This document shows, one piece after another, positions 1,179-42,619 of a stretch of 64,000 nt of DNA. Origin of the DNA: Patescibacteria group bacterium (GTDB taxonomy: Bacteria; Patescibacteriota; Patescibacteriia; Magasanikbacterales; GWA2-37-8). The notes under the pieces are model-generated. The model worked only from the letters and a program-made list of their open reading frames with translations. It made no database searches and was not told the DNA's origin. The DNA lies in assembly GCA_004321885.1 (NCBI GenBank), contig SCQK01000014.1, positions 1-64,000 of the forward strand, in the 5' to 3' direction. The number at the start of each line of letters is the position of its first letter. Position 1 is the first letter of the stretch. A program made the translations under genes and the position numbers.

Positions 1179-4100
1179 ATGGCCAAGAAAATCGTGCGCC
1201 ATCTGGCGAGCAAAAAAAGAGCCTACCTGCTGTCGCTGGCGGCAGTGGTGTTGGGCATGGGTTTTTATTTAGCTTTTTTCTGGAGCAACGGGGCCAAGGC
1301 CCTCTCCGGCGTAACGCTTGCCGATACAGATACGAGTAGTTTTGGTTTGGATGGGCGCGACTTTACCGTAACCTGGGCCCCGGGCGCCACTCCGACGGCT
1401 TATATTTACACCCAGGTCTACATTGTTACCAGCACGGCTGTTCTTACCTCCAACACGCTTCAAACCGCCTGTAACGGCGTATGCCAGCCGGTTAGTTATT
1501 TTACCCAGTGGAGCATGAATACCGTCACCCTGCCGCAATACAGGAACACGGATAGCTCCAATGTGGCCTGGACAACCACCACCCAGTATGTGGCCTGGGT
1601 ATTTGCTTCCACCACTAACCCAGTCGATTCCCTAATGGTTTCTTCATCGCCGGTTTCCACCACTTATGACGTTGCCTCCGACGCCATGGCCCCGAACATA
1701 GATCACATGTCGGCGCACGCGGCCACGCAAAGCGCCAACGCCCTTCTTTATGCGTTTGCTTTTGACGAGCAGACCACGGCGTCCCAGTTCGCTTCCACCA
1801 CCGACGGCGGAGCTGAATTTTTTACCCTCTTTTACACGCCCACCAACACGGCCTGGGTCCCGGCCAATCAAGCGACCGCCACTTCGGTAGCCGGAGATTT
1901 ATTCTTGTTCACAGTGCCATCCGAGGCAGTGCCGGCGGCCGGGGGTTCGTTTAAGTATTATTTGTCGGCCAGAGACAGAGCCGGCAACACTAAATTTTTC
2001 TGCGCCAATCCCAGCGCCATATCCGCGGCTGATTGCCAATCCAATGCTTTTATTGTCAATACGGTAGCGGCTGGCTCGCGCCAGGTTTCCGGCAAGATTA
2101 CGTCCGGGGGCGCTAATTTGGCCGGCGCCACAGTGTTTGCCGGCGGTTATGCCAAGGCGGCTGTCGCATCCGACGCTAGCGGCGATTACACCATTACCGG
2201 TTTGCCTGATAATGATGGGTTTGATTTCACCGCGACCAAAGCCGGCTATTGCAAGAACATCCGTTTTGAAAATATCGGCGCTACCAATAAAACCGGCGTG
2301 GACATGTCGCTTAACTCCGGCACTTGCGGCGGATACTATGGCGGAGGCGGGAGCGGTGGCGGCACGCCCATGGTGGTGTTTTCGGGTCCGCCGGAAGGTA
2401 TGAATAACGTGTTTCTTGGTGAAACAATGCGCATGGGCGTAAATCAGCCCCTTGACCAGGCCACCATTAACAGCACAAATGTCTACCTCACGACCGATGA
2501 TGGCACGACTAAGATCCCCGGCAGTGTAACATTCTGTTCCAATAATGCTTCGCCCGGTTGTTCTTCTCTTTTCGCGATGGATAATAATGTCGTGTTGTTC
2601 GTGCCCACGTCGCCGCTATCTTCCAGCACCTTTTATACTTATGTCATCACCGAAGGCGTTAAAAGCGCGAGCGGCCAGTCTATTACCGGCAACCGCGCCG
2701 GCGGCGGCCACAAGGTCAGCTTTACCACCTCGGGCGGCAATTACAGCGGCGGCGGTTATACCATGGGCAGCAGCGGCCAGTTCATGCCCCCTTATGTGAA
2801 ATCAATGAGTCCGGCCGGCGGCATGAGCGTGGCCCCGAACGTTAAATTAATTCTGGAATTCAACAAGGCAATGAGCGCGAGTACGGTAAACACCTCCAAT
2901 GTTATTCTGTGGAACACGACTTTAAATTCGGCTGTTACTTTAAGCAGTGTTACCTTGGACAACGCGGAAAGCCGCTTTGCGGTTATCACGCCCAGCTCAA
3001 TGCCGGCCGGCAATGACTATGAACTGCGCGTCAAGGGCGGGGTGCAAGATGCGAGCGGCGTGGGCATGCGTTCGCCGGCCGAGGCCTCGCAAACAGCTTT
3101 CAGCTCGTTTTTTAGCGTGGCTGGTTCAAACGACAACACCGCGCCCACGACTTATCCAATGACTGCTTCTGGCACCACCGGCGTTGCCACCAATAATCTT
3201 TTTGAGTTTGGTTTTAATGAACGGCTGGATACCCAGACCGTCAATTCCACCAACATCACCATGAGCCGCGGGGGCACGTCAGTCAGCATTGACGCCAAAT
3301 ATGACGGCACCAAGAACAGTATTTTGATTGTTCCCAGCTCGGCCCTGGCGGCAAGCACGGTCTACACCATTACCTTATCCAGAATTAAGGATTTGGCCAA
3401 CAACCAAATTGCCACTTCCACCTATACCTATACTACCGGCGCGGCCGATATCGCGGCGCCGGCAGTACAGAATGTGAGATGCGATGATTATACCTGCCGC
3501 ATATCGTTCAGCGAGCCTATGAACCACGCGACCAAGGTTGATTCCACCTGGGCGAGCAGTACCTTGAATCATTTGAATTTGAGCCTGACCCAGGGTGGGG
3601 CCGACAAAATAGTCACCACCACGGCGCTATCCTACGATTCAGTGGCCAAAGAATTGGTTGCCGAGGGCGTGGCCCTTACTTTTGGCGGAGCCAACTTCGC
3701 ACTGACAATCACTGGTGTTACTGATATTACCGGCAACATTATGCCGGTCGTTGCTTGGACAGGAGCAGTGGAAGACAGTAGAAAGACGTTTGGTTTTGGT
3801 GAAATGGGCATGTTTGGCCCGCCCACTACTGATATGATGGGCGGCGGGTCCATTGGCGGCGGCGAGTTCAAGCCCATGGGCTTTGGCTCGTTTACAGCCG
3901 ACCAGTTTGCCATGGGTCAGGCTGATATGGCTTTCCCGTTCAACCCCACTGTCAGCCAGGACGTCAATGTCTTTCATGTGGAATTAAATCCCAACACGGC
4001 CCTGCAAAACAACGATCAGGTGGCATTAACATTCCCGGATGGAGTCAACATTACGAACGCCGCCATGGATACCCTGTCTCCGTTTTTCGCGGACATGAAC

Positions 4101-7100
4101 CAGTTTGGAGCCGGCACTGTGACAGCCACTATTGCCTCGGTGAATACCAGCACCAATAAGATTACTCTTAATTTAGGCATTGTCGGCGGGCCCACTGGTC
4201 CGGGCGATCGTTTGTTCATTGATTTGCGCAAAATAATCAATCAGTCAACCCCGAACAATCCGTCCATTGGCGGAAGCAAACTTAGTATTAGTATTCTAAG
4301 AAGCAACGCGGTTCTGGCCAGCAAGACCACCATGGAATATTATGTCATGGCCGGCGGCACCAATACCTTAAATGTGGCCGTCATTGCCGGCAGCGCCACT
4401 TCTTCGCCGCAAAGCGGAGCAAACGGAACAGTTTATTTGCACGGAGGCGGCCCGGGCGGTCCGATGGATAAAACCCTGGTGCTCTTGAATGGTTCAATTT
4501 CCACTGTTGACGGGACTTCGGCAAATTCAATTTCTTTCACCAGCTTAAATAACGGCTGTTATTTCGTTGGCACTGACCCGTTCGTTAGTTTGGGCGGGGC
4601 TGATTACTTTGGCCAGGGCATGCCCGAACCAGTCTGCTTGAATGGCAGTGCATCAAGTACCAAATATATCTTGCTCTCTCCGGCCGCTGGTTCGGGCTCG
4701 GTGACAACCACGGTTAAATTGGCTGGCATCGCGAACTTTGGCGGCGCTGACATAGACATCTTTGCCGGGGGTCCGGGCCGATTTGTGGTCAAGACACTCA
4801 CGGCTTTGGGTGCGCCCGATGCCAATGGCTATAATTTGCAACTGCCGGCCAATGGCAACTGGTTTATCGGCGTGGGTCCGGCCATGCCCAAGGGCAGTTC
4901 CATGACCATGCCAAAGACATTGCCGGGCGTGCCTCCGGCTCCGATTGATGTGGCTGTGAGCGGCGTTGGTTCTGGTTCCCCCTCTGTTACCCGCAACAGC
5001 TTCATGCCTCTGCCTTCCAGCGTCAGCTTCAATGATACCTCGGATACGATTACCTTTACCTTTGCCACGGCTGATAAAATGGTAACCGGCACAGTGAAAG
5101 ACGGCGCTGGAAACGGGTTGGCGAATATTCAGGTATTCTTGCACCAGCAGGGGTTTGGCGCGCCAACATTTGGGCAGACCAATGCCTCGGGCACGTTTAC
5201 ATTGTCTGTGTCGGATTATGGCAGTTATGAAATCGGCGCGTTTAGAGATGGCATGCCGCCGGTGTTCAAGAGCCTGGAGATTAGAACCGACGGCGACGAT
5301 GCCGACAGCTTGGCTGACATCTATTATCAGGGCAAGTTGATTACCCAGGCCAACCCGCTGGTGCTGACGATGAAAAAAGCGGCCTATACTATTTCCGGCA
5401 AGGTGCTTGACGCGAGCAACAACAGCATAGACGGGGCTCCGGTGTTCGCGGTGGACGAGAACGGCAATAGCGCCATGGGCATGACAGCCTCGGACGGCAG
5501 CGGCTATTCCATATTTGTGGACGCCGGCACCTGGACAGTGCGCGCTGAATTGCCTCCGGATAAATCTGACACCTGCGGGTCTTTCTCCAAGAGTGTCGTA
5601 GTCACCAACGCCAGCAAGTCATTGCAAAACATCAGCCCGTCCACAGCCACCTGTATCACGCTTAGCGGCACGGCCAGCGCCGGCGGCACGGCCATTGCCA
5701 ACGCCCCTTTGTTTATAGAGGAATGGGACAACACCAACAGCCGGCCGGTGCAGGGCGGGGTAAAACGCGGCACGGCTACGGACAGCAATGGCGCCTATTC
5801 GGTGAAATTGGCCGGCAATACCACTTATCGCGTAGGCACCTGGAATCCGACTTATGGCGAGCTTAGCGCGGTCAAGGCGGTGCTGGCAATAGATGCCACG
5901 CAAAATTTGACTCTTTCTTCAACCAGCACGGTTACATTCAATTTCACCGGCGGTACCGCCAACATGAAGGCTTTTGTTGAATTGAAGAATGCCACTGATA
6001 AAATGAAAAGAATCGGCAAACAGGTAGAGTCGCTGGCCAGCGCCGCCACTGTTTCTGTTGAAGGCGGAGCAACCTACAATTACTTCGTTGACGTGTTCGG
6101 ATTTGGCAAGTTCACGGGTTCAGTGGCCGCCGGCGCTTCAGCCACGGTAGACGTTTCCACGGTCGGCTTTATCACGGTTTCCGGCACCATATACAGCGGC
6201 GCCGGCACGACCACGCCTGTGTCCGGAGCCCTCGTCACCTTTACCAATACCAGCACCGGCATAGTGCAAAGCGCGTCCACTAATGCCAGCGGCACGTATA
6301 GCGTGAAAATTAAAGCCGGTGATTACGCGGTAAGCGCCGGTCTAAATGAATATCTGCCCGGGCAAACCGCCGCGGTAGTTTCTTTCGCTACCACCACTCT
6401 GAATTATGATTTCGGCGGCGCGGCTCCGGACCAGGTGGCCATGGTCAGAGCAAATCGCACTATTGAAGGATTTATTTCCACTTCGGCCAGCGCTTCCACT
6501 TCCCAGGGATACGTCTGGGCCACTAACGCGTCGGGCACTGTCATCAGTGCGCCTATCAACGCGAATGGCACGTATTCATTGTCTGTCAACGACGGGTCCT
6601 GGACCGTAAAAGCGACCGCGCCCAGGCACGCGGAAACCACCAAGAGCGCCGCCGTAACAGTCTCGGGAAGTAATTCCACGGGCAACAACTTTACCCTTAC
6701 CGCTGATGCCACGCGCGTGCCCACCTCAACCTCGGGCATTGTGGCGGCCAATAGCGGCGGCTCGGTAAACGACAGCAACAATACCGGCATAAAAGTAGTA
6801 GCCGGCCCGGGCGTGCTTGAAGCCGGTTCTACCAATAATGTTACGGTTAGTCTGGAAAAAACATACAGCGCCCCGGCTTCCAGCGAATTCAACGCCTTAG
6901 GCAACGCGACTTACAGCATCACGGCCAAGACCACTTCCCAGGTTAAAGATTTGGTAGGCAATGCCGATATTCAGCTTGATTACACCAGCATGGTCGCGCA
7001 ATTGCCCACCGGAGTGACGGAAGCAGACCTGAAACTGATGTACTTGTCTTCTGAAACCGGCAAATACGTGTCAGTGGAAGGCGGCTATACCATAGACGCG

Positions 7101-8309
7101 ACCAACAACACCATTACAGGCCAGGTTGACCACCTCACGGACTTTGTTATCGCTTACTCGCCTCCGGCCGCGGCGGCCGCGCCCGCCTCGCCGGCTGCCT
7201 CGCCGACCACTGGTAGCGCGCCTACCAGCGACACTACTCCGCCGACCAATACTTCGGTGGTGATAGCGGGCGGCGCCACTACCACGGCCAGCGCCTCGGT
7301 TACCCTTACCCTGGCCGCCACTGGCGCCAGCCACATGATGGTATCCAATGTCGCGGCCTTTACCGGAGCGGCTTGGGAAACTTATGCCACTTCCAAGTCT
7401 TGGACCCTGGCCTCCGGAGCCGGCGTGAAAACCGTGTACGCGCGGTTCAAGGATTCATCCGGCAACATTTCCACGGCCGTATCTGATACTATACAACTGA
7501 CCGGCACGCAGACTACCCCGACTACGGATATTGTTGTGCCGGGCGTGGAAAATCTGGTAACGGGCGCTCCGACGGCCCCGGTAGTGGCGGTAGCGTATCC
7601 GGATTCGCTGGTGGAAATCACAAATATCCTCAAGGGTTCGTTTCAGCCAAGTGAAACGCTCAAGTTCGCCTACAAGTTCACCAACGAAAGCGCCAAGACC
7701 TTGAAGATAAAAATAGTGCGCCAGCTCTTAAATAGCAAGGGCAAAGTGATAAGCACTGCTTCCACGGTAAAGACCATCAAGGCCGGGCAGGCCTTTAATG
7801 CCGGCGTGAAACAAGCGCTGAACAAGAAATGGCCGGCCGGAGTCTATACCATGCGCGTGCGCGTGTACAACGCGGCCACGAACAAACTGCTGGAGCAGAA
7901 TAGCTTCCAGATTACGATTGAAAAGCTGAAAAAGAAGGTGTTCAAGCTTGGCGCGGCTCTTAGCGCTGATTCGGATGTCCAGTTTGACCAGGCCAGTCTG
8001 GCCAAAGTCAAATCCGGCGGCGGTTTGCCGGTGATTATCAAGGCCAAATACAGCTACACCAATAATACGGGCGCAAAGCATGTGGTGAAAATGGTGCGCG
8101 AGTTGGTGAATGGCAGTGGCAAAGTAGTTTCCACTTCCAAGGGCAAATGGACAATGGCTGTGGATGAAAAGTCCAGTCAATCCTTTACCCAGCCCGTGGC
8201 CGCCAATCTGGCGGCGGGCTCGTACGCAATGCGCGTTAAGGCCTATGATTGGACCAGCAACGAATTGTTGGCGGAAAATAGCTTGGGATTTGAGGTGGCG
8301 CTAAAGTAA
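1179..8309 (+). CDS. Giant (2376 aa) secreted/cell-surface protein with N-terminal signal/TM anchor, many Thr/Ser/Gly-rich Ig-like and carboxypeptidase-regulatory-like beta-sandwich modules, and a conserved C-terminal module shared with the next gene
   Basis: Single uninterrupted ORF; hydrophobic N-terminus (LLSLAAVVLGMGFYLAFFW); recurring segments such as VSGKITSGGANLAGATVFAGGY...SGDYTITGLPDNDGFDF typical of CarboxypepD_reg-like domains; AAGGAG Shine-Dalgarno 10 nt upstream; all antisense ORFs inside are short. Confidence 0.85.
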   Translation: MAKKIVRHLASKKRAYLLSLAAVVLGMGFYLAFFWSNGAKALSGVTLADTDTSSFGLDGRDFTVTWAPGATPTAYIYTQVYIVTSTAVLTSNTLQTACNGVCQPVSYFTQWSMNTVTLPQYRNTDSSNVAWTTTTQYVAWVFASTTNPVDSLMVSSSPVSTTYDVASDAMAPNIDHMSAHAATQSANALLYAFAFDEQTTASQFASTTDGGAEFFTLFYTPTNTAWVPANQATATSVAGDLFLFTVPSEAVPAAGGSFKYYLSARDRAGNTKFFCANPSAISAADCQSNAFIVNTVAAGSRQVSGKITSGGANLAGATVFAGGYAKAAVASDASGDYTITGLPDNDGFDFTATKAGYCKNIRFENIGATNKTGVDMSLNSGTCGGYYGGGGSGGGTPMVVFSGPPEGMNNVFLGETMRMGVNQPLDQATINSTNVYLTTDDGTTKIPGSVTFCSNNASPGCSSLFAMDNNVVLFVPTSPLSSSTFYTYVITEGVKSASGQSITGNRAGGGHKVSFTTSGGNYSGGGYTMGSSGQFMPPYVKSMSPAGGMSVAPNVKLILEFNKAMSASTVNTSNVILWNTTLNSAVTLSSVTLDNAESRFAVITPSSMPAGNDYELRVKGGVQDASGVGMRSPAEASQTAFSSFFSVAGSNDNTAPTTYPMTASGTTGVATNNLFEFGFNERLDTQTVNSTNITMSRGGTSVSIDAKYDGTKNSILIVPSSALAASTVYTITLSRIKDLANNQIATSTYTYTTGAADIAAPAVQNVRCDDYTCRISFSEPMNHATKVDSTWASSTLNHLNLSLTQGGADKIVTTTALSYDSVAKELVAEGVALTFGGANFALTITGVTDITGNIMPVVAWTGAVEDSRKTFGFGEMGMFGPPTTDMMGGGSIGGGEFKPMGFGSFTADQFAMGQADMAFPFNPTVSQDVNVFHVELNPNTALQNNDQVALTFPDGVNITNAAMDTLSPFFADMNQFGAGTVTATIASVNTSTNKITLNLGIVGGPTGPGDRLFIDLRKIINQSTPNNPSIGGSKLSISILRSNAVLASKTTMEYYVMAGGTNTLNVAVIAGSATSSPQSGANGTVYLHGGGPGGPMDKTLVLLNGSISTVDGTSANSISFTSLNNGCYFVGTDPFVSLGGADYFGQGMPEPVCLNGSASSTKYILLSPAAGSGSVTTTVKLAGIANFGGADIDIFAGGPGRFVVKTLTALGAPDANGYNLQLPANGNWFIGVGPAMPKGSSMTMPKTLPGVPPAPIDVAVSGVGSGSPSVTRNSFMPLPSSVSFNDTSDTITFTFATADKMVTGTVKDGAGNGLANIQVFLHQQGFGAPTFGQTNASGTFTLSVSDYGSYEIGAFRDGMPPVFKSLEIRTDGDDADSLADIYYQGKLITQANPLVLTMKKAAYTISGKVLDASNNSIDGAPVFAVDENGNSAMGMTASDGSGYSIFVDAGTWTVRAELPPDKSDTCGSFSKSVVVTNASKSLQNISPSTATCITLSGTASAGGTAIANAPLFIEEWDNTNSRPVQGGVKRGTATDSNGAYSVKLAGNTTYRVGTWNPTYGELSAVKAVLAIDATQNLTLSSTSTVTFNFTGGTANMKAFVELKNATDKMKRIGKQVESLASAATVSVEGGATYNYFVDVFGFGKFTGSVAAGASATVDVSTVGFITVSGTIYSGAGTTTPVSGALVTFTNTSTGIVQSASTNASGTYSVKIKAGDYAVSAGLNEYLPGQTAAVVSFATTTLNYDFGGAAPDQVAMVRANRTIEGFISTSASASTSQGYVWATNASGTVISAPINANGTYSLSVNDGSWTVKATAPRHAETTKSAAVTVSGSNSTGNNFTLTADATRVPTSTSGIVAANSGGSVNDSNNTGIKVVAGPGVLEAGSTNNVTVSLEKTYSAPASSEFNALGNATYSITAKTTSQVKDLVGNADIQLDYTSMVAQLPTGVTEADLKLMYLSSETGKYVSVEGGYTIDATNNTITGQVDHLTDFVIAYSPPAAAAAPASPAASPTTGSAPTSDTTPPTNTSVVIAGGATTTASASVTLTLAATGASHMMVSNVAAFTGAAWETYATSKSWTLASGAGVKTVYARFKDSSGNISTAVSDTIQLTGTQTTPTTDIVVPGVENLVTGAPTAPVVAVAYPDSLVEITNILKGSFQPSETLKFAYKFTNESAKTLKIKIVRQLLNSKGKVISTASTVKTIKAGQAFNAGVKQALNKKWPAGVYTMRVRVYNAATNKLLEQNSFQITIEKLKKKVFKLGAALSADSDVQFDQASLAKVKSGGGLPVIIKAKYSYTNNTGAKHVVKMVRELVNGSGKVVSTSKGKWTMAVDEKSSQSFTQPVAANLAAGSYAMRVKAYDWTSNELLAENSLGFEVALK

Positions 8310-38837: not shown

Positions 38838-38872
38838 TCCTCTCCCTCTTAGGAGGAGGATAGAATAGGGGG
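38838..38872. repeat. Family A C/G palindromic element after argS
   Basis: TTCCTCTCCCTC-tta-GGAGGAGGATAGAATAGGGGG. Confidence 0.5.
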
Positions 38873-38877
38873 TATTT

Positions 38878-38898
38878 GGGCAATCCACGCCCTTTTTT
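38878..38898 (+). terminator. Small intrinsic terminator (GGGC-aatccac-GCCC plus T6)
   Basis: 4-bp GC stem followed by TTTTTT, 56 nt after the argS stop. Confidence 0.4.
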
Positions 38899-38920
38899 AA
38901 TTTATCCGCAACTTATCAAC

Positions 38921-38957
38921 TGTACACCTTGACAGTACACCTAACGAGGTGTACTAT
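38921..38957 (+). promoter_or_regulatory. Sigma70-type promoter for the TA operon (TTGACA 38929..38934, 17-nt spacer, TACTAT 38952..38957) with an embedded operator palindrome AGTACACCT-aacg-AGGTGTACT plus direct repeat TGTACACCT
   Basis: Consensus -35, near-consensus -10 and a perfect 9-bp inverted repeat in the spacer; the antitoxin ATG lies 7 nt after the -10, so the mRNA is probably leaderless. Confidence 0.6.
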
Positions 38958-38963
38958 TTATCT

Positions 38964-39185
38964 ATGAAAATCACTATCCACGGTATGTCTAAGATAATAA
39001 AAGAAGAAGGCGTTGAGAGAGTGACTCTTAAACTACCAAAAAGCGTGGCAGTGTATTTTCGCAAAGCTTTTCCGCACGGGAAGCGCAGCGATTTTGTGGC
39101 GCGGCAAATTTTGCGATACAAGCACGAACGGGAAGTGGGCGAGATTGAAGAAAAATTGCGCGAGGCCAGCGCTGGAAGGCAATAA
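38964..39185 (+). CDS. Ribbon-helix-helix type antitoxin (MazE/PemI-like role)
   Basis: Beta-strand-like ERVTLKLPKS then a helix; it sits 7 nt upstream of the PemK/MazF toxin gene and is directly preceded by a promoter-operator palindrome. Confidence 0.55.
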   Translation: MKITIHGMSKIIKEEGVERVTLKLPKSVAVYFRKAFPHGKRSDFVARQILRYKHEREVGEIEEKLREASAGRQ

Positions 39186-39191
39186 TAATTT

Positions 39192-39563
39192 ATGACAAAT
39201 GAATCGGAAAATATGTATTGCGGGGCCATAAAAAGGGGCGAGGTTTTTATCTGCGACCTGGCCGGCAAAAAAGCGTGGGCGCTTGTTCTGCAAGACAATG
39301 TTCTAAACGGCTGTTTGCCCACCGTGGTTTGCGCGCCGATAGAGCCGAGAAAAAAGACAGACAGGTTGTATATCAACGAAGTGGTTTTGCCGGGCGTGGA
39401 GACCGGCTTGGGCAAAGACGGCATTTGCCTGCCTTATAAAATAATTAGTATTGACCGCCGGCGGATTATCGCGAAAAAAGGCGAAGTTTCCAAAGAAAAA
39501 ATGGCAGAGGTTTATCAAGCGCTGGATATTACGTTGGGAAGGTTTAGGGATAAAAAATTTTGA
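39192..39563 (+). CDS. PemK/MazF-family toxin (mRNA interferase)
   Basis: GEVFICDL...KAWALVLQDN...TVVCAPI...LPYKIISIDRRRI aligns with the MazF/PemK fold along its whole length. Confidence 0.7.
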   Translation: MTNESENMYCGAIKRGEVFICDLAGKKAWALVLQDNVLNGCLPTVVCAPIEPRKKTDRLYINEVVLPGVETGLGKDGICLPYKIISIDRRRIIAKKGEVSKEKMAEVYQALDITLGRFRDKKF

Positions 39564-39675
39564 CGTTCTTTCCAGTCGCTCCTTTGATTTTGAGGCTGAA
39601 ATTCGGCGTCAGAATTGAAGGAGCGATTTTTTCGCTCTTTGACAAGTTACACAAACCATCTGGAAGGATGAATAA

Positions 39676-40857
39676 ATGAACCGGGAAAAAAATCTGAAGA
39701 CCATGCCGCGTGCGATTTTCGTATCGCACGCATTGCTCCCCGACTACAAGTCGAGTGAGCTCATCAGCCGCCGGCTCAAAGAACTCGGCCAGGGGTGGCC
39801 GGAAAAGGGGAAAGAGCCGGGGTTTATCCACTGGCTAACCTTCCCGGTGGTTCCGCCCCAGGAGAGTGGCGGTCGGCCGATTCTCGTGGATTTTCTTATC
39901 ATTCCGCTTTTCGCCGACGCCTACTTCAGGGCTATCGCCAGCGGCAAGGCCTATGTTTGGGCCTGCGAGGCTGTGGAAAGGGCCGTTGAGAACGCGCTCT
40001 TGGACGGCGTGTCGCCTGACGATATCTGGGTTGGTTGGGGGGCGTTCACTAAGATAGCCACTCATCACGGGAAGCTATTTTTGGAGAACAACCCCAAGTT
40101 CTCCTCAAATTCAACCCATGGAGACGCTGGCACTGGCGCGTTGGTGATAGAAGCTATCCTAGAAGCCGGCTTCAAGCCTGGCTTTAAGGTAGCGGTAATC
40201 GGCGCCAATGGGGCCATTGGTGACGCGGTTAGTCGCGTTCTTCCTTCCCTATCCCCGGCGAGTATCATGCTTGTGGGCAGGGAAGACGCGCCCGGGCAGG
40301 ACCGCAATTTTCTGCGTCTGCGGGAATTGGGCGTGTGCGTGGCGCAGAAAGTGAACGGCGGCCAAACCAAAGTCACCACGCACCAGGACAAGCGCACGGC
40401 CTGTCTGGAACAGGGAAGCGACCTGGTCATAGTCGCGACAAGCGGCAGTACGGTCGTTCGTCCCACTGAAGTTCCACATGGCGCGCTGGTGCTGGACATC
40501 ACGACGCCGAGCGCGTGCGGAACAGATCCGCGCGGGTGGGAGGGCAAGATGGTAGTTTTGGCCGGTTGCGGACAGTTTCTTCCGGGTGTTCTCCCGCTGG
40601 TCTTCGGCGAGACTGGCGGCGAGCCCATACTTGACGTCGGCGCCGGCGGCGCACTCTGCTTGTGGGGTTGCACGGGCGAAACAATCTCCCGTGCGGTTTT
40701 TGGGGTTCGCGGTCATCTCGCCGGACCCGAGATCCCCTTGGAAGCGGTTACGCAATGCGCCGAGCACTTTAGGGGGCTCGGCTTTGCGCCCCAGCCTTTC
40801 ACGGCGTTCGGAAAGTCCGTCGCGACCGACGCCGTGCGCCAGTTCGTCGCCGCGTAG
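39676..40857 (+). CDS. NAD(P)-binding (GxxGxxG Rossmann) protein of unknown function; compositionally foreign (GC-rich)
   Basis: KVAVIGANGAIGDAVSRVL in mid-protein; AAGGA RBS upstream; strong intrinsic terminator downstream; GC content is visibly higher than the flanks, with many spurious overlapping ORFs on both strands. Confidence 0.5.
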   Translation: MNREKNLKTMPRAIFVSHALLPDYKSSELISRRLKELGQGWPEKGKEPGFIHWLTFPVVPPQESGGRPILVDFLIIPLFADAYFRAIASGKAYVWACEAVERAVENALLDGVSPDDIWVGWGAFTKIATHHGKLFLENNPKFSSNSTHGDAGTGALVIEAILEAGFKPGFKVAVIGANGAIGDAVSRVLPSLSPASIMLVGREDAPGQDRNFLRLRELGVCVAQKVNGGQTKVTTHQDKRTACLEQGSDLVIVATSGSTVVRPTEVPHGALVLDITTPSACGTDPRGWEGKMVVLAGCGQFLPGVLPLVFGETGGEPILDVGAGGALCLWGCTGETISRAVFGVRGHLAGPEIPLEAVTQCAEHFRGLGFAPQPFTAFGKSVATDAVRQFVAA

Positions 40858-40932: not shown

Positions 40933-40960
40933 CAACAAAATTATGTTATAATATCCATGT

Positions 40961-42619
40961 ATGGTTATAGACTTCTATTCAATCCTGCCCCTCACCTGCG
41001 CTATCTTCGTTGCTTCATTCGGCCTTTTTATTTTAGTAAAAGATTTGCGCTCAAGAATGAACCAGTTGCTGTTTGGTTTTAGCATGAGCATGTTTTTCTG
41101 GATGTTTGGCACGTTTATGATGTTCGCGACAAGAGGCGATCTGGCCGCTTCTGTTTTTTGGGATCGTTTTGTTTACGCTGGGGTGGTTTTCATGCCGCCT
41201 TTCATGCATCACTTTAGCCTGCTTTTCACGAAAAAAATCGGTAAACAAAAATTTCTTTTATTTCTAAATTATTTTTTAGCTTTCGTTTTTCTTTTCGCTA
41301 GCAGGACAGAATATTTTGTTGATGGTCTTTATTATTATTCCTGGGGAGTTCATACGCAGGCCAGGATACTTCACCATTTATTTTTAGCGTGGTTTTTTTG
41401 GGGGACAGGTCTGTTCTTTGTGAACATGATGAATTTTTACCGGAAATCAGCCGATGCTTTGGCAAAATTGCAGACAAAATACGTGTTCGTGGCTTTTGGC
41501 TGTGTGATATTTGTCGGCGGCTCGGCCTATCTTTTTGCCTACGGCATAGATACGAAGTTTCCGTTTTCCTATGTTTCCGGCTTGGTATTTCCGATAATGC
41601 TTTTTTACACGGTGAGCAGGCACCATCTTTTAAACACTAAAGTCATTACGACTGAAGTATTGGTTGGTTTGACGGAATTTTTGCTCGTCATGCAGATATT
41701 TTTTTCCAAATCCGCGTTTGATATTTTTGTCAGGGTTGTTTTCTCCTTGATAGTGGCTTTGATAGGCGTGCTGTTGATACAATCGGTGCGTCGGGAAATA
41801 AAACGCCGCGAAGAAGTGGCCAGCCTGGCCTTCTCTCTGGAAAAAGCCAACATCCGCCTCAAAGAGCTGGACCAGCAAAAGACCGAGTTTCTTTCCATCG
41901 CCTCGCACCAGTTGCGCACCCCGCTCACCGTACTCAAGGGTTACGTTGAGTTGGTGATGGATGGCGCTTACGGCAAACCCACCGCCGGCATTAGAAAAGT
42001 GATGGGTGACATAGACACCAGCAATGAACACCTGGTGAAATTGATAGACGAGTTTTTGGATATTTCGCGCATAGAGCAGGGGCGCGCCAAATACAATTTT
42101 GTCGGCGCCGATATGGTCAAAATCGTGGGCGGCATTGTGAACGAACTGCAGGAAAAAGCCAAAGCCAAAAAATTGCGGCTGACCTGGGACCCGGACGGGG
42201 TGAAAGAAAAAATTTGCGTTGACGAGGAAAAAATCAGGCACGTTATCTTTAATTTTGTGGACAACGCCATCAAGTATTCGGACAAGGGAGCAATACAAGT
42301 ATTGCTGGAGCGCGATGACGGCGGCTTGACGGTGAGGGTGCGAGACAGCGGCATCGGTTTCGGCAAAATAGACGAGGCCAGCTTTTTTCAAAAATTTTAT
42401 CGCGGCGAAAACGTGAAAGCTAAAAACGTTACCGGCACCGGCCTGGGCCTCTATGTTTGTCGCAAGTTCATAGAAGCGCACGGCGGCCGCATTTGGGCCG
42501 CGAGCCAAGGGCTGGGCGCGGGTAGCGAGTTCGGGTTCTGGGTTCCGAACAAACGAAAACCCGAAGCACCCGGTCTTAATCCGCAAAATGTAAATGTCAG
42601 TTGCGGTGTCGGCCGGTAG
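40961..42619 (+). CDS. Sensor histidine kinase with a polytopic N-terminal membrane domain
   Basis: H-box LSIASHQLRTPLT and HATPase_c G-box GTGLGLYVCRKFIEAHGG; ~7 predicted TM helices; no response regulator adjacent. Confidence 0.8.
   Translation: MVIDFYSILPLTCAIFVASFGLFILVKDLRSRMNQLLFGFSMSMFFWMFGTFMMFATRGDLAASVFWDRFVYAGVVFMPPFMHHFSLLFTKKIGKQKFLLFLNYFLAFVFLFASRTEYFVDGLYYYSWGVHTQARILHHLFLAWFFWGTGLFFVNMMNFYRKSADALAKLQTKYVFVAFGCVIFVGGSAYLFAYGIDTKFPFSYVSGLVFPIMLFYTVSRHHLLNTKVITTEVLVGLTEFLLVMQIFFSKSAFDIFVRVVFSLIVALIGVLLIQSVRREIKRREEVASLAFSLEKANIRLKELDQQKTEFLSIASHQLRTPLTVLKGYVELVMDGAYGKPTAGIRKVMGDIDTSNEHLVKLIDEFLDISRIEQGRAKYNFVGADMVKIVGGIVNELQEKAKAKKLRLTWDPDGVKEKICVDEEKIRHVIFNFVDNAIKYSDKGAIQVLLERDDGGLTVRVRDSGIGFGKIDEASFFQKFYRGENVKAKNVTGTGLGLYVCRKFIEAHGGRIWAASQGLGAGSEFGFWVPNKRKPEAPGLNPQNVNVSCGVGR

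Follow-up and report, generated by a model that had tools for sequence, protein, structure and literature searches.

The subject of this analysis is a pair of small genes, one for a putative antitoxin and one for a PemK/MazF-type toxin, that together with their regulatory DNA occupy positions 38902-39634 of a 64,000-nucleotide stretch of the 159-kb contig SCQK01000014.1 from a Patescibacteria group bacterium (assembly GCA_004321885.1; Magasanikbacterales). We refer to the whole 64-kb stretch as the window and collect the coordinates of its features in Table 1. The two genes are co-directional, only 6 nt separate the antitoxin stop from the toxin start, and with a promoter on the 5' side and a terminator on the 3' side they make up a single predicted transcription unit. 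The terminator hairpin has a z-score of -6.2, and as good a fold was found in 0 of 200 shuffles. An initial annotation, made from the sequence alone, had described a bicistronic PemK/MazF-type module, and this description is borne out by the Pfam match of the toxin, the short gap, the terminator and the conserved pairing of the two genes in related loci.

Table 1. Positions of the promoter, operator and coding features of the antitoxin-toxin locus in the window (CDS, coding sequence)
Feature	Positions	Strand	Remarks
Upstream box copy TTATCCGCA	38902..38910	+	DnaA-box-like 9-mer, 1 mismatch to TTATCCACA
Degenerate box TTATCAACT	38913..38921	+	Slot of TTATCCACA in orthologues; 2 mismatches
Putative operator half-site A ACTGTACACCT	38919..38929	+	Core GTACACCT at 38922-38929; direct repeat of site B
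-35 hexamer TTGACA	38929..38934	+	Orthologues have TTTACA or TTGACA at the equivalent place
Putative operator half-site B AGTACACCT	38934..38942	+	Left arm of perfect palindrome
Palindrome spacer AACG	38943..38946	.	4 nt; length fixed, sequence free among orthologues
Putative operator half-site C AGGTGTACT	38947..38955	+	Right palindrome arm; overlaps -10
-10 hexamer TACTAT	38952..38957	+	Orthologues have TAnnnT right after AGGTG
Antitoxin CDS, NCBI start	38964..39185	+	73 aa, TAN32650.1, 'hypothetical protein'
Antitoxin CDS, family-conserved start	38985..39185	+	66 aa, MSKIIKEEGVERVTLKLP...; RHH-like N-terminal part and acidic C-terminal helix
PemK/MazF-fold toxin CDS	39192..39563	+	123 aa, TAN32651.1; NCBI name PemK/MazF family toxin
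Predicted intrinsic terminator of the operon	39574..39634	+	25-bp hairpin, then U-run; dG -36.6 kcal/mol
GC-rich gene (context, outside the module)	39676..40857	+	393 aa, GC 0.61, GC3 0.70; putative AAR/CER1-C/PigE-N-like reductase

The predicted promoter, TTGACA with a 17-nt spacer and TACTAT, agrees with the consensus at 10 of 12 positions (the -35 hexamer perfectly, the -10 hexamer at 4 of 6) and is the best promoter-like site in 5 kb. A perfect inverted repeat with 9+9 arms, AGTACACCT-AACG-AGGTGTACT, fills the spacer (38934-38955), and an 11-nt direct copy, ACTGTACACCT, sits 13 nt 5' of ACAGTACACCT at 38932-38942. These elements, together with an ATG 7 nt after the -10, had all been read in the initial annotation and all lie exactly where it placed them. 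The core that the half-sites share, GTACACCT, occurs 4 times in the window, 3 of them at the operator, against an expectation of 0.41, and 0 of 100 shuffles reached 4. A generic promoter scan taken alone gave no enrichment (5 sites against 5.0 expected), so that the case for function rests on comparison with orthologous loci.

Three sets of loci enter this comparison: 26 species-representative genomes retrieved via the antitoxin, 30 metagenome loci of which about 13 are new, and four loci retrieved via the toxin alone; counts out of 27 include the window, and individual loci are cited by number (L001 and so on). The layout TTATCCACA-GTACACCT-(-35)-GTACACCT-N4-AGGTGTAC-(-10) is common to 22 of the 27 orthologous loci, and in the orthologous upstream DNA it reads more fully as TTATCCACA - (A)GTACACCT - TT(T/G)ACA - (A)GTACACCT - N4 - AGGTGTA - TAnnnT. 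Allowing up to 3 mismatches, we found ACACCT-N4-AGGTGT between the two promoter hexamers in 22 of the 27 species-level loci; 9 additional loci from metagenomes have it too. Information content is near 2 bits per position in the arms and the direct copy and near 0 in the 4-nt spacer. The exact inverted repeat occurs once per locus and nowhere else in the locus, and neither the window nor the flanks of the loci contain further genomic operator targets. Moreover, the roughly 58 nt from box to ATG are identical between L022 and L023 although the synonymous sites of their antitoxin genes differ (proportion of synonymous differences, pS, 0.61). The comparative data thus argue that the predicted promoter and operator are real: conservation in the orthologous loci confirms the sigma70-type promoter of the initial annotation and upholds its proposal that the palindrome and the direct copy form a putative autorepression operator, with conserved arms and a variable 4-nt spacer. 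The half-sites are spaced 13 and 12 bp, and three of them spanning both promoter hexamers would fit repression by promoter occlusion.

Could the palindrome be an RNA element instead, either a terminator of argS or a 5' hairpin? A terminator scan does list 38934-38955 as a hairpin. However, the palindrome occupies the stretch between the two hexamers and would hence not be transcribed from the predicted promoter, its tail (ATTTATCTAT) is poor in T, and further 5', at about 38867-38898, there is another hairpin that does have a T-run; the orthologues, too, have a T-run before the box. A third, direct copy would be needless for a hairpin, the arms are conserved in sequence with no free covariation, and there is no Rfam match. 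We rejected the RNA reading, which seems to us hardly credible, because the site lies upstream of the predicted transcription start and because of the sequence-conserved arms, the third copy and the missing Rfam match; on the same grounds the palindrome and its direct copy are best described as a putative protein-binding operator.

Two further observations concern this region in individual loci. At L026 (3925-3976) four tandem 8-bp units (ATCCTACT-like), directly 5' of the antitoxin ATG, replace the usual operator. L017 and L023, both from co-assembly SRP278252_co1, are identical over the 110 nt 5' of the antitoxin, including the 3' end of argS, and differ in the antitoxin and toxin coding regions (pS about 0.55-0.61), which suggests either that recombination has had a breakpoint at the promoter or that the assembly is chimeric.

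Upstream of site A the orthologous loci carry a further element, a 9-mer that we compared with the DnaA box consensus TTATNCACA. The exact consensus box TTATCCACA abuts site A in 18 of the 26 genome loci, and one-mismatch forms are found in several others. Only eight other exact copies exist in the approximately 255 kb examined, three of them coding coincidences inside the kinase gene. The distance of 30 nt from the 9-mer to the -10 is kept even at L003 and L011, both of which are without the GTACACCT repeats. The window follows this geometry: TTATCAACT abuts half-site A, 30 nt 5' of the -10, and TTATCCGCA is an extra copy 11 nt, or about one helical turn, 5' of the box in the canonical position. 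The 9-mer is a real and conserved element of the promoter, and DnaA is the obvious candidate for a protein that might bind it.

At L007 the 9-mer is inverted and forms part of a box cluster. This locus (3600-3960) has no argS upstream and has about 900 bp of non-coding DNA in its place, with three exact copies of TTATCCACA, one TTATCCCCA, repeated 26-nt palindromes (GTTTGTATAGACTAGTGTATACAAAC) and repeats of GGCTAATTTTAGACAAAAA; the region may be origin-like, may titrate DnaA, or may be the remnant of a mobile element. In the window, the sole exact TTATCCACA lies far from the pair, at 989-997, in the intergenic DNA between tsf and the gene for a 2376-aa putative surface protein (1179-8309), 41 nt 5' of a TATAAT.

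The position of the antitoxin start bears on whether the transcript is leaderless, as the initial annotation had implied. Between the -10 and the ATG at 38964, which is the NCBI start, there are 6 nt; the A of this in-frame codon is the 7th nt after the -10, at the usual distance of a start site. A second in-frame ATG, which the annotation had passed over, lies at 38985 and gives the start MSKIIKEEG.... All 39 homologues and all loci begin at the equivalent of this second ATG, many with an in-frame stop a few codons 5' of it, and no homologue has an equivalent of the seven extra residues, MKITIHG, of the longer form. The conserved ATG is 8-10 nt from the -10 in 8 of 22 orthologous promoters, leaderless or nearly so by geometry, and in the remaining ones it is 17-60 nt away, with no Shine-Dalgarno sequence. 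A search for such sequences cannot choose between the two ATGs, since only 7 of the 53 long open reading frames (ORFs) of the window have one. A leaderless start at 38964 is thus plausible as a feature specific to the window genome and not as a conserved property of the operon. Several other genes of the window have a -10-like hexamer at most 8 nt before the ATG (the kinase gene, for example, has TATAAT-8 nt-ATG at 40941-40963), and leaderless or Shine-Dalgarno-independent initiation may be widespread in this organism.

The antitoxin family is tiny. At 90% identity its members fall into 39 clusters, and when 1.84 billion representatives were scanned in full with a HMMER profile, no more than about 10 clusters at 50% identity reached an E below 1e-10. 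The homologues are 64-68 aa long and have no match in Pfam, NCBIfam, PHROG, PADLOC or PDB. Their conserved core is (I/V)ERVTLKLPKSVAxYFRKAFPHGKRSDFVA, in which the strand E-R-V-T-L-K-L-P is near-invariant. In the AlphaFold2 (AF2) model residues 18-25 are extended, 26-35 form a helix and, after a turn, 41-72 form a long helix, a beta-alpha-alpha arrangement; the model is of a monomer, which is ill-suited to an obligate-dimer fold. In hhalign the antitoxin aligns with CopG in register but with weak statistics (E 0.007, probability 5.6%), and also in register, and weakly (E 0.08), with an approximate B. subtilis MazE sequence, an alignment to which we give no weight. The BrnA_antitoxin profile matches 2 of 40 antitoxin members, with E 0.036, and a Foldseek search with the model returned no match.

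A further indication comes from variation among the loci. Among the non-redundant loci, strand residue T21 is paired with GTACACCT at site B in 17 of 20, and where V or I replaces it, GTGCACCT accompanies the change in 6 of 7 (Fisher p 0.0017, uncorrected for phylogeny), which is the pattern expected if the strand reads the operator. The antitoxin had initially been called a ribbon-helix-helix (RHH) protein. The beta-alpha-alpha order, the register with CopG and the covariation of T21 speak for that assignment and the searches yielded no significant database match to support it; we regard an RHH-like fold as likely. The antitoxin ends in an acidic C-terminal helix (isoelectric point, pI, 5.7); the toxin is basic, with a pI of 9.0.

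The toxin is far more readily placed. It matches Pfam PemK_toxin (PF02452) with E 9.9e-16 and 58.3 bits against a cut-off of 23.1, over profile positions 1-107 of 109; it matches the PHROG 'MazF-like growth inhibitor' with E 2.3e-11 and S. aureus and B. subtilis MazF in PDB by sequence, and hhalign pairs it with MoxT, the B. anthracis MazF homologue, at a probability of 97.6%. The AF2 model (mean pLDDT, a per-residue confidence score, 87; pTM, a global one, 0.81) has the MazF/Kid beta-barrel with a C-terminal helix. Its best Foldseek matches are S. aureus and B. subtilis MazF (TM about 0.78, E 1e-9, about 30% identity), and with M. tuberculosis MazF included the range is TM 0.75-0.80 at E about 1e-9. 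The subfamily to which it belongs is distinct, with at least 200 clusters at 90% identity, and all of its named members are from Patescibacteria.

The active site, however, departs from that of MazF. In E. coli MazF the two catalytic residues are R29, in the beta1-beta2 loop, and T52, after beta3. The equivalents in B. subtilis MazF, R25 and T48, are catalytic in characterised MazFs, and their mutation abolishes activity (PMC7354611; see also PMC8634880). In our family the beta1-beta2 loop is 7 residues shorter than in canonical MazF and is modelled as a tight hairpin (strands E17-23 and E26-32). The column equivalent to R25 holds A in the window and, among 30 sequences, R in 2, K in 9 and other residues in 19, and at the position of T48, 26 of the 30 have E (E51 in the window among them), 1 has T and 1 has S. 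What the family does keep invariant is Y9, C10, R15, G16, Q34, E63 and C79 as well as G-R-F-R(-D) at the C-terminus, and position 82 is either H or Y; the N-terminal MYCGA and the C-terminal GRFRD are extra conserved motifs. Thus the full-length alignment with MazF/PemK claimed for this protein holds for the profile as a whole, but with a 7-residue loop deletion and with the catalytic Arg and Thr lost. With both catalytic features failing in spite of the family and fold match, RNase activity is not assured, and where we speak of it below we do so by inference from the family.

Might a protein of this kind poison a target other than RNA? The MazF fold is common to CcdB, and CcdAB combines a toxin of this fold, likewise without the RNase catalytic pair, with an RHH antitoxin, to which the RHH-like antitoxin of the window would correspond. 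The C-terminal tail of CcdB is functionally important, and the strictly invariant GRFR(D) at the end of our toxin recalls it. One could therefore imagine a CcdB-like protein that acts through its C-terminal tail on gyrase or a translation factor, with a CcdA-like RHH partner. But all sequence, profile and structure matches are to MazF/PemK and none to CcdB, CcdAB is plasmid-borne, and the target itself is a conjecture, so that we consider this reading very unlikely.

The chromosomal setting of the pair is remarkably constant. All 26 genome loci share the order tyrS-argS-antitoxin-(X)-toxin-slot gene-7TM histidine kinase-bactofilin (7TM, seven-transmembrane), as do all 4 loci retrieved via the toxin and, with the exception of L053, the new metagenome loci, more than 35 loci overall; the argS flank is missing at L007 and L042. 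Because ArgRS identities across the set span 33-97%, the tyrS-argS-module arrangement must be old. GC content at third codon positions (GC3) is 0.48 for the antitoxin and 0.54 for the toxin, like that of the neighbouring genes, and the ratio of nonsynonymous to synonymous divergence (dN/dS) of the pair is 0.04-0.15 in unsaturated comparisons. Pairwise identities have a median of 61% in the antitoxin and 55% in the toxin, which exceeds the medians of TyrRS (48%) and ArgRS (46%). Correlations of identity between the pair and the flanking housekeeping genes are positive and weak (rho 0.2-0.4), no weaker than those between the aminoacyl-tRNA synthetase (aaRS) genes themselves, and serve as a consistency check only.

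The one broken locus, L053, lies in a rearranged context: at 3850-4500 there is an orphan antitoxin homologue, with bactofilin upstream on the opposite strand, an unrelated 83-aa ORF and then the kinase downstream, and no argS, MazF-like gene or GC-rich slot. Its operator is degenerate and is preceded by TTATTCACA. Here the toxin has gone and the antitoxin has stayed, an imbalance that one would expect if the toxin does harm when unaccompanied. Elsewhere the pair can be enlarged. A third conserved small gene of 71-110 aa, absent from the window, stands between antitoxin and toxin in 10 of 27 loci; it was noted at L001 (2614-2886), L004, L005, L007, L010, L014, L015, L016, L024, L025 and L060. 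It carries the motif QAC(L/V)(D/E)(Y/H)(L/I)xIGLxSGD(I/V), has no Pfam match, and could be a third component of the module.

Between toxin and kinase lies the slot gene, of about 360-440 aa. In about 20 of 22 evaluable loci its occupant is GC-rich, exceeding its surroundings by 10-20 points of GC content (0.50-0.64 against 0.36-0.46), and the gene in the window is a clear compositional outlier, with the GC and GC3 given in Table 1 against about 0.47. The occupants are of at least three unrelated protein types, differing between lineages. Most of them, the window gene included, are fast-diverging AAR/CER1-C/PigE-N-like reductases that are mutually remote (hhalign probability 75-85%), and the others are a methyltransferase-like group and FabH-like proteins. 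The slot gives the impression of a hotspot at which lipid-type enzymes have been replacing one another over a long time, unless its composition is held by another force.

In the initial annotation the pair had been taken, as a presumption, for an addiction or defence module that travels together with this GC-rich neighbour. A mobile module acquired with that gene and stabilising it would indeed account for the outlying composition and for the regular presence of a GC-rich gene after the toxin. This claim did not survive the comparison. The pair itself is of host-like composition, is under strong purifying selection, and stays in its fixed place between argS and the kinase while the slot is filled by one unrelated protein type or another, so that it is the GC-rich gene which is the exchanged part; a strong terminator, moreover, separates the two. 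We found no relative of the pair in 2.9 million viral contigs, nothing beyond PemK proteins of Firmicutes, about 30% identical, in 72,556 plasmids, no PADLOC match, and no integrase or flanking repeats at the locus. We therefore rejected mobility: the addiction reading is largely refuted by synteny and can be regarded as essentially excluded.

What, then, is the best explanation of the locus? We think it probable, though well short of certain, that 38902-39634 is an autoregulated bicistronic MazEF-type operon that is vertically inherited and fixed in a Magasanikbacteria-type lineage of Patescibacteria. In the mechanism that we propose, the sigma70-type promoter would drive the small antitoxin and the MazF-fold toxin, probably with translational coupling because only 6 nt lie between the genes, and the strong terminator would end the unit. 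The N-terminal part of the antitoxin would form an RHH-like domain (strand ERVTLKLP, a helix, the turn FPHGKRS and a second helix), dimers of which would occupy the three GTACACCT half-sites, A just 5' of the -35 and B and C filling the spacer and overlapping both hexamers. Their binding would occlude RNA polymerase and thus bring about autorepression. The acidic C-terminal helix would bind and neutralise the basic toxin, which in turn may be a sequence-specific RNase that uses other residues, or may have some other inhibitory binding function. The TTATCCACA element 5' of site A probably adds a second regulatory input, perhaps through DnaA.

Several observations weigh against this explanation. 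The catalytic Arg and Thr of canonical MazF are absent from the toxin family, and toxicity cannot be assumed. In 5 of 27 loci (L002, L003, L006, L011 and L026) the palindrome is without a counterpart, and the strand residues are invariant there. The covariation test on T21 ignores kinship, and the V/I group may be one clade. Both box copies in the window, TTATCCGCA and TTATCAACT, are degenerate. Finally, a bona fide selfish toxin-antitoxin (TA) module would not typically be inherited strictly vertically or be better conserved than housekeeping genes.

The main alternative is that the pair is a domesticated TA derivative in which the MazF-fold protein is neither toxin nor RNase and acts with the RHH-like protein as a corepressor or sensor pair. 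Its role would then be one of housekeeping regulation, for instance in growth or cell-cycle control, possibly integrating DnaA via TTATCCACA. The loss of the Arg/Thr pair and of the long beta1-beta2 loop, the newly invariant positions (Y9, C10, C79 and GRFR(D) at the C-terminus), the fixed synteny in more than 35 loci, the low dN/dS with conservation exceeding that of the flanking synthetases, the confinement of the family to one lineage and the conserved upstream 9-mer would all be natural on such a view. The layout, however, is otherwise that of a textbook type II TA module: the gene for a small DNA-binding protein comes first, the toxin gene follows after 6 nt, and the operator covers the promoter. 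The loss of the toxin alone at L053 is what a harmful toxin would predict, and some MazF/Kid enzymes use other residues, so that H/Y82, E63, R117 and R119 could form an alternative site. Domestication is possible, in our judgement, but on the unlikely side. More speculative still, and to be held only with considerable doubt, is a specific version in which the pair is a MazEF-derived growth or cell-cycle regulator belonging to the core of the lineage, argS-adjacent throughout the history of the clade, with a remodelled active site (Y9, C10, C79, H/Y82 and GRFRD) and with a promoter that joins autorepression to a DnaA box, so that its activity would be coupled to the state of replication initiation.

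How does the MazEF-type operon that we favour compare with known systems? The closest are the chromosomal MazEF pairs of Firmicutes (B. subtilis EndoAI/EndoA, or YdcD/YdcE; S. aureus MazEF; B. anthracis MoxXT), to which the toxin is most closely related in sequence and structure, with about 30% identity, a TM of 0.78 and an hhalign probability of 97.6, and which are likewise bicistronic with the antitoxin first. The antitoxin of EndoAI/EndoA is of the RHH type, and the B. subtilis pair is also chromosomally fixed across a large clade, 5' of the sigB operon. The differences are nevertheless considerable: the window family has a loop shorter by 7 residues, does not conserve R25 and T48, adds the MYCGA and GRFRD motifs, has an antitoxin with no detectable sequence relationship to those of Firmicutes, and has an operator architecture and an upstream TTATCCACA box peculiar to itself.

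With E. coli MazEF and Kis-Kid/PemIK the window pair shares the toxin fold and PF02452, and the autoregulation of those systems by the antitoxin or the complex, at palindromic operators overlapping the promoter, is what we predict in the window. Their antitoxins, however, use the AbrB/SpoVT-type swapped-hairpin domain and not RHH, and their catalytic residues are absent from the window toxin; PemIK and Kis-Kid, moreover, are plasmid addiction systems, whereas the window pair is chromosomally fixed and restricted to its lineage. The antitoxin resembles the RHH repressors CopG, Arc, MetJ, ParD and CcdA in its beta-alpha-alpha order, in the alternation of polar and hydrophobic residues in its N-terminal strand and in a Gly turn before helix 2, and its operator resembles theirs in that half-sites recur at intervals of about one helical turn (13 and 12 bp in the window), which would permit promoter occlusion. 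It differs from them in having no significant match to any RHH family of Pfam or to any solved RHH structure.

TA modules are usually treated as mobile, patchy and dispensable. The pair described here is a MazEF-type system that departs from this picture, being fixed across an ultra-small, reduced-genome lineage, evolving more slowly than the neighbouring aaRS genes and carrying a remodelled MazF active site. Its promoter region, with a box, three putative half-sites and a sigma70-type promoter, is a compact regulatory unit. To our knowledge almost no promoters or repressors of bacteria of the candidate phyla radiation (CPR) have been experimentally characterised, and because of this the promoter in the window offers a practical entry point for in vitro work and for the study of leaderless or Shine-Dalgarno-independent translation. 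A toxin that is still an RNase would mean that the MazF fold has arrived at a new way of catalysis; otherwise the pair would be a clear case of the domestication of a TA module.

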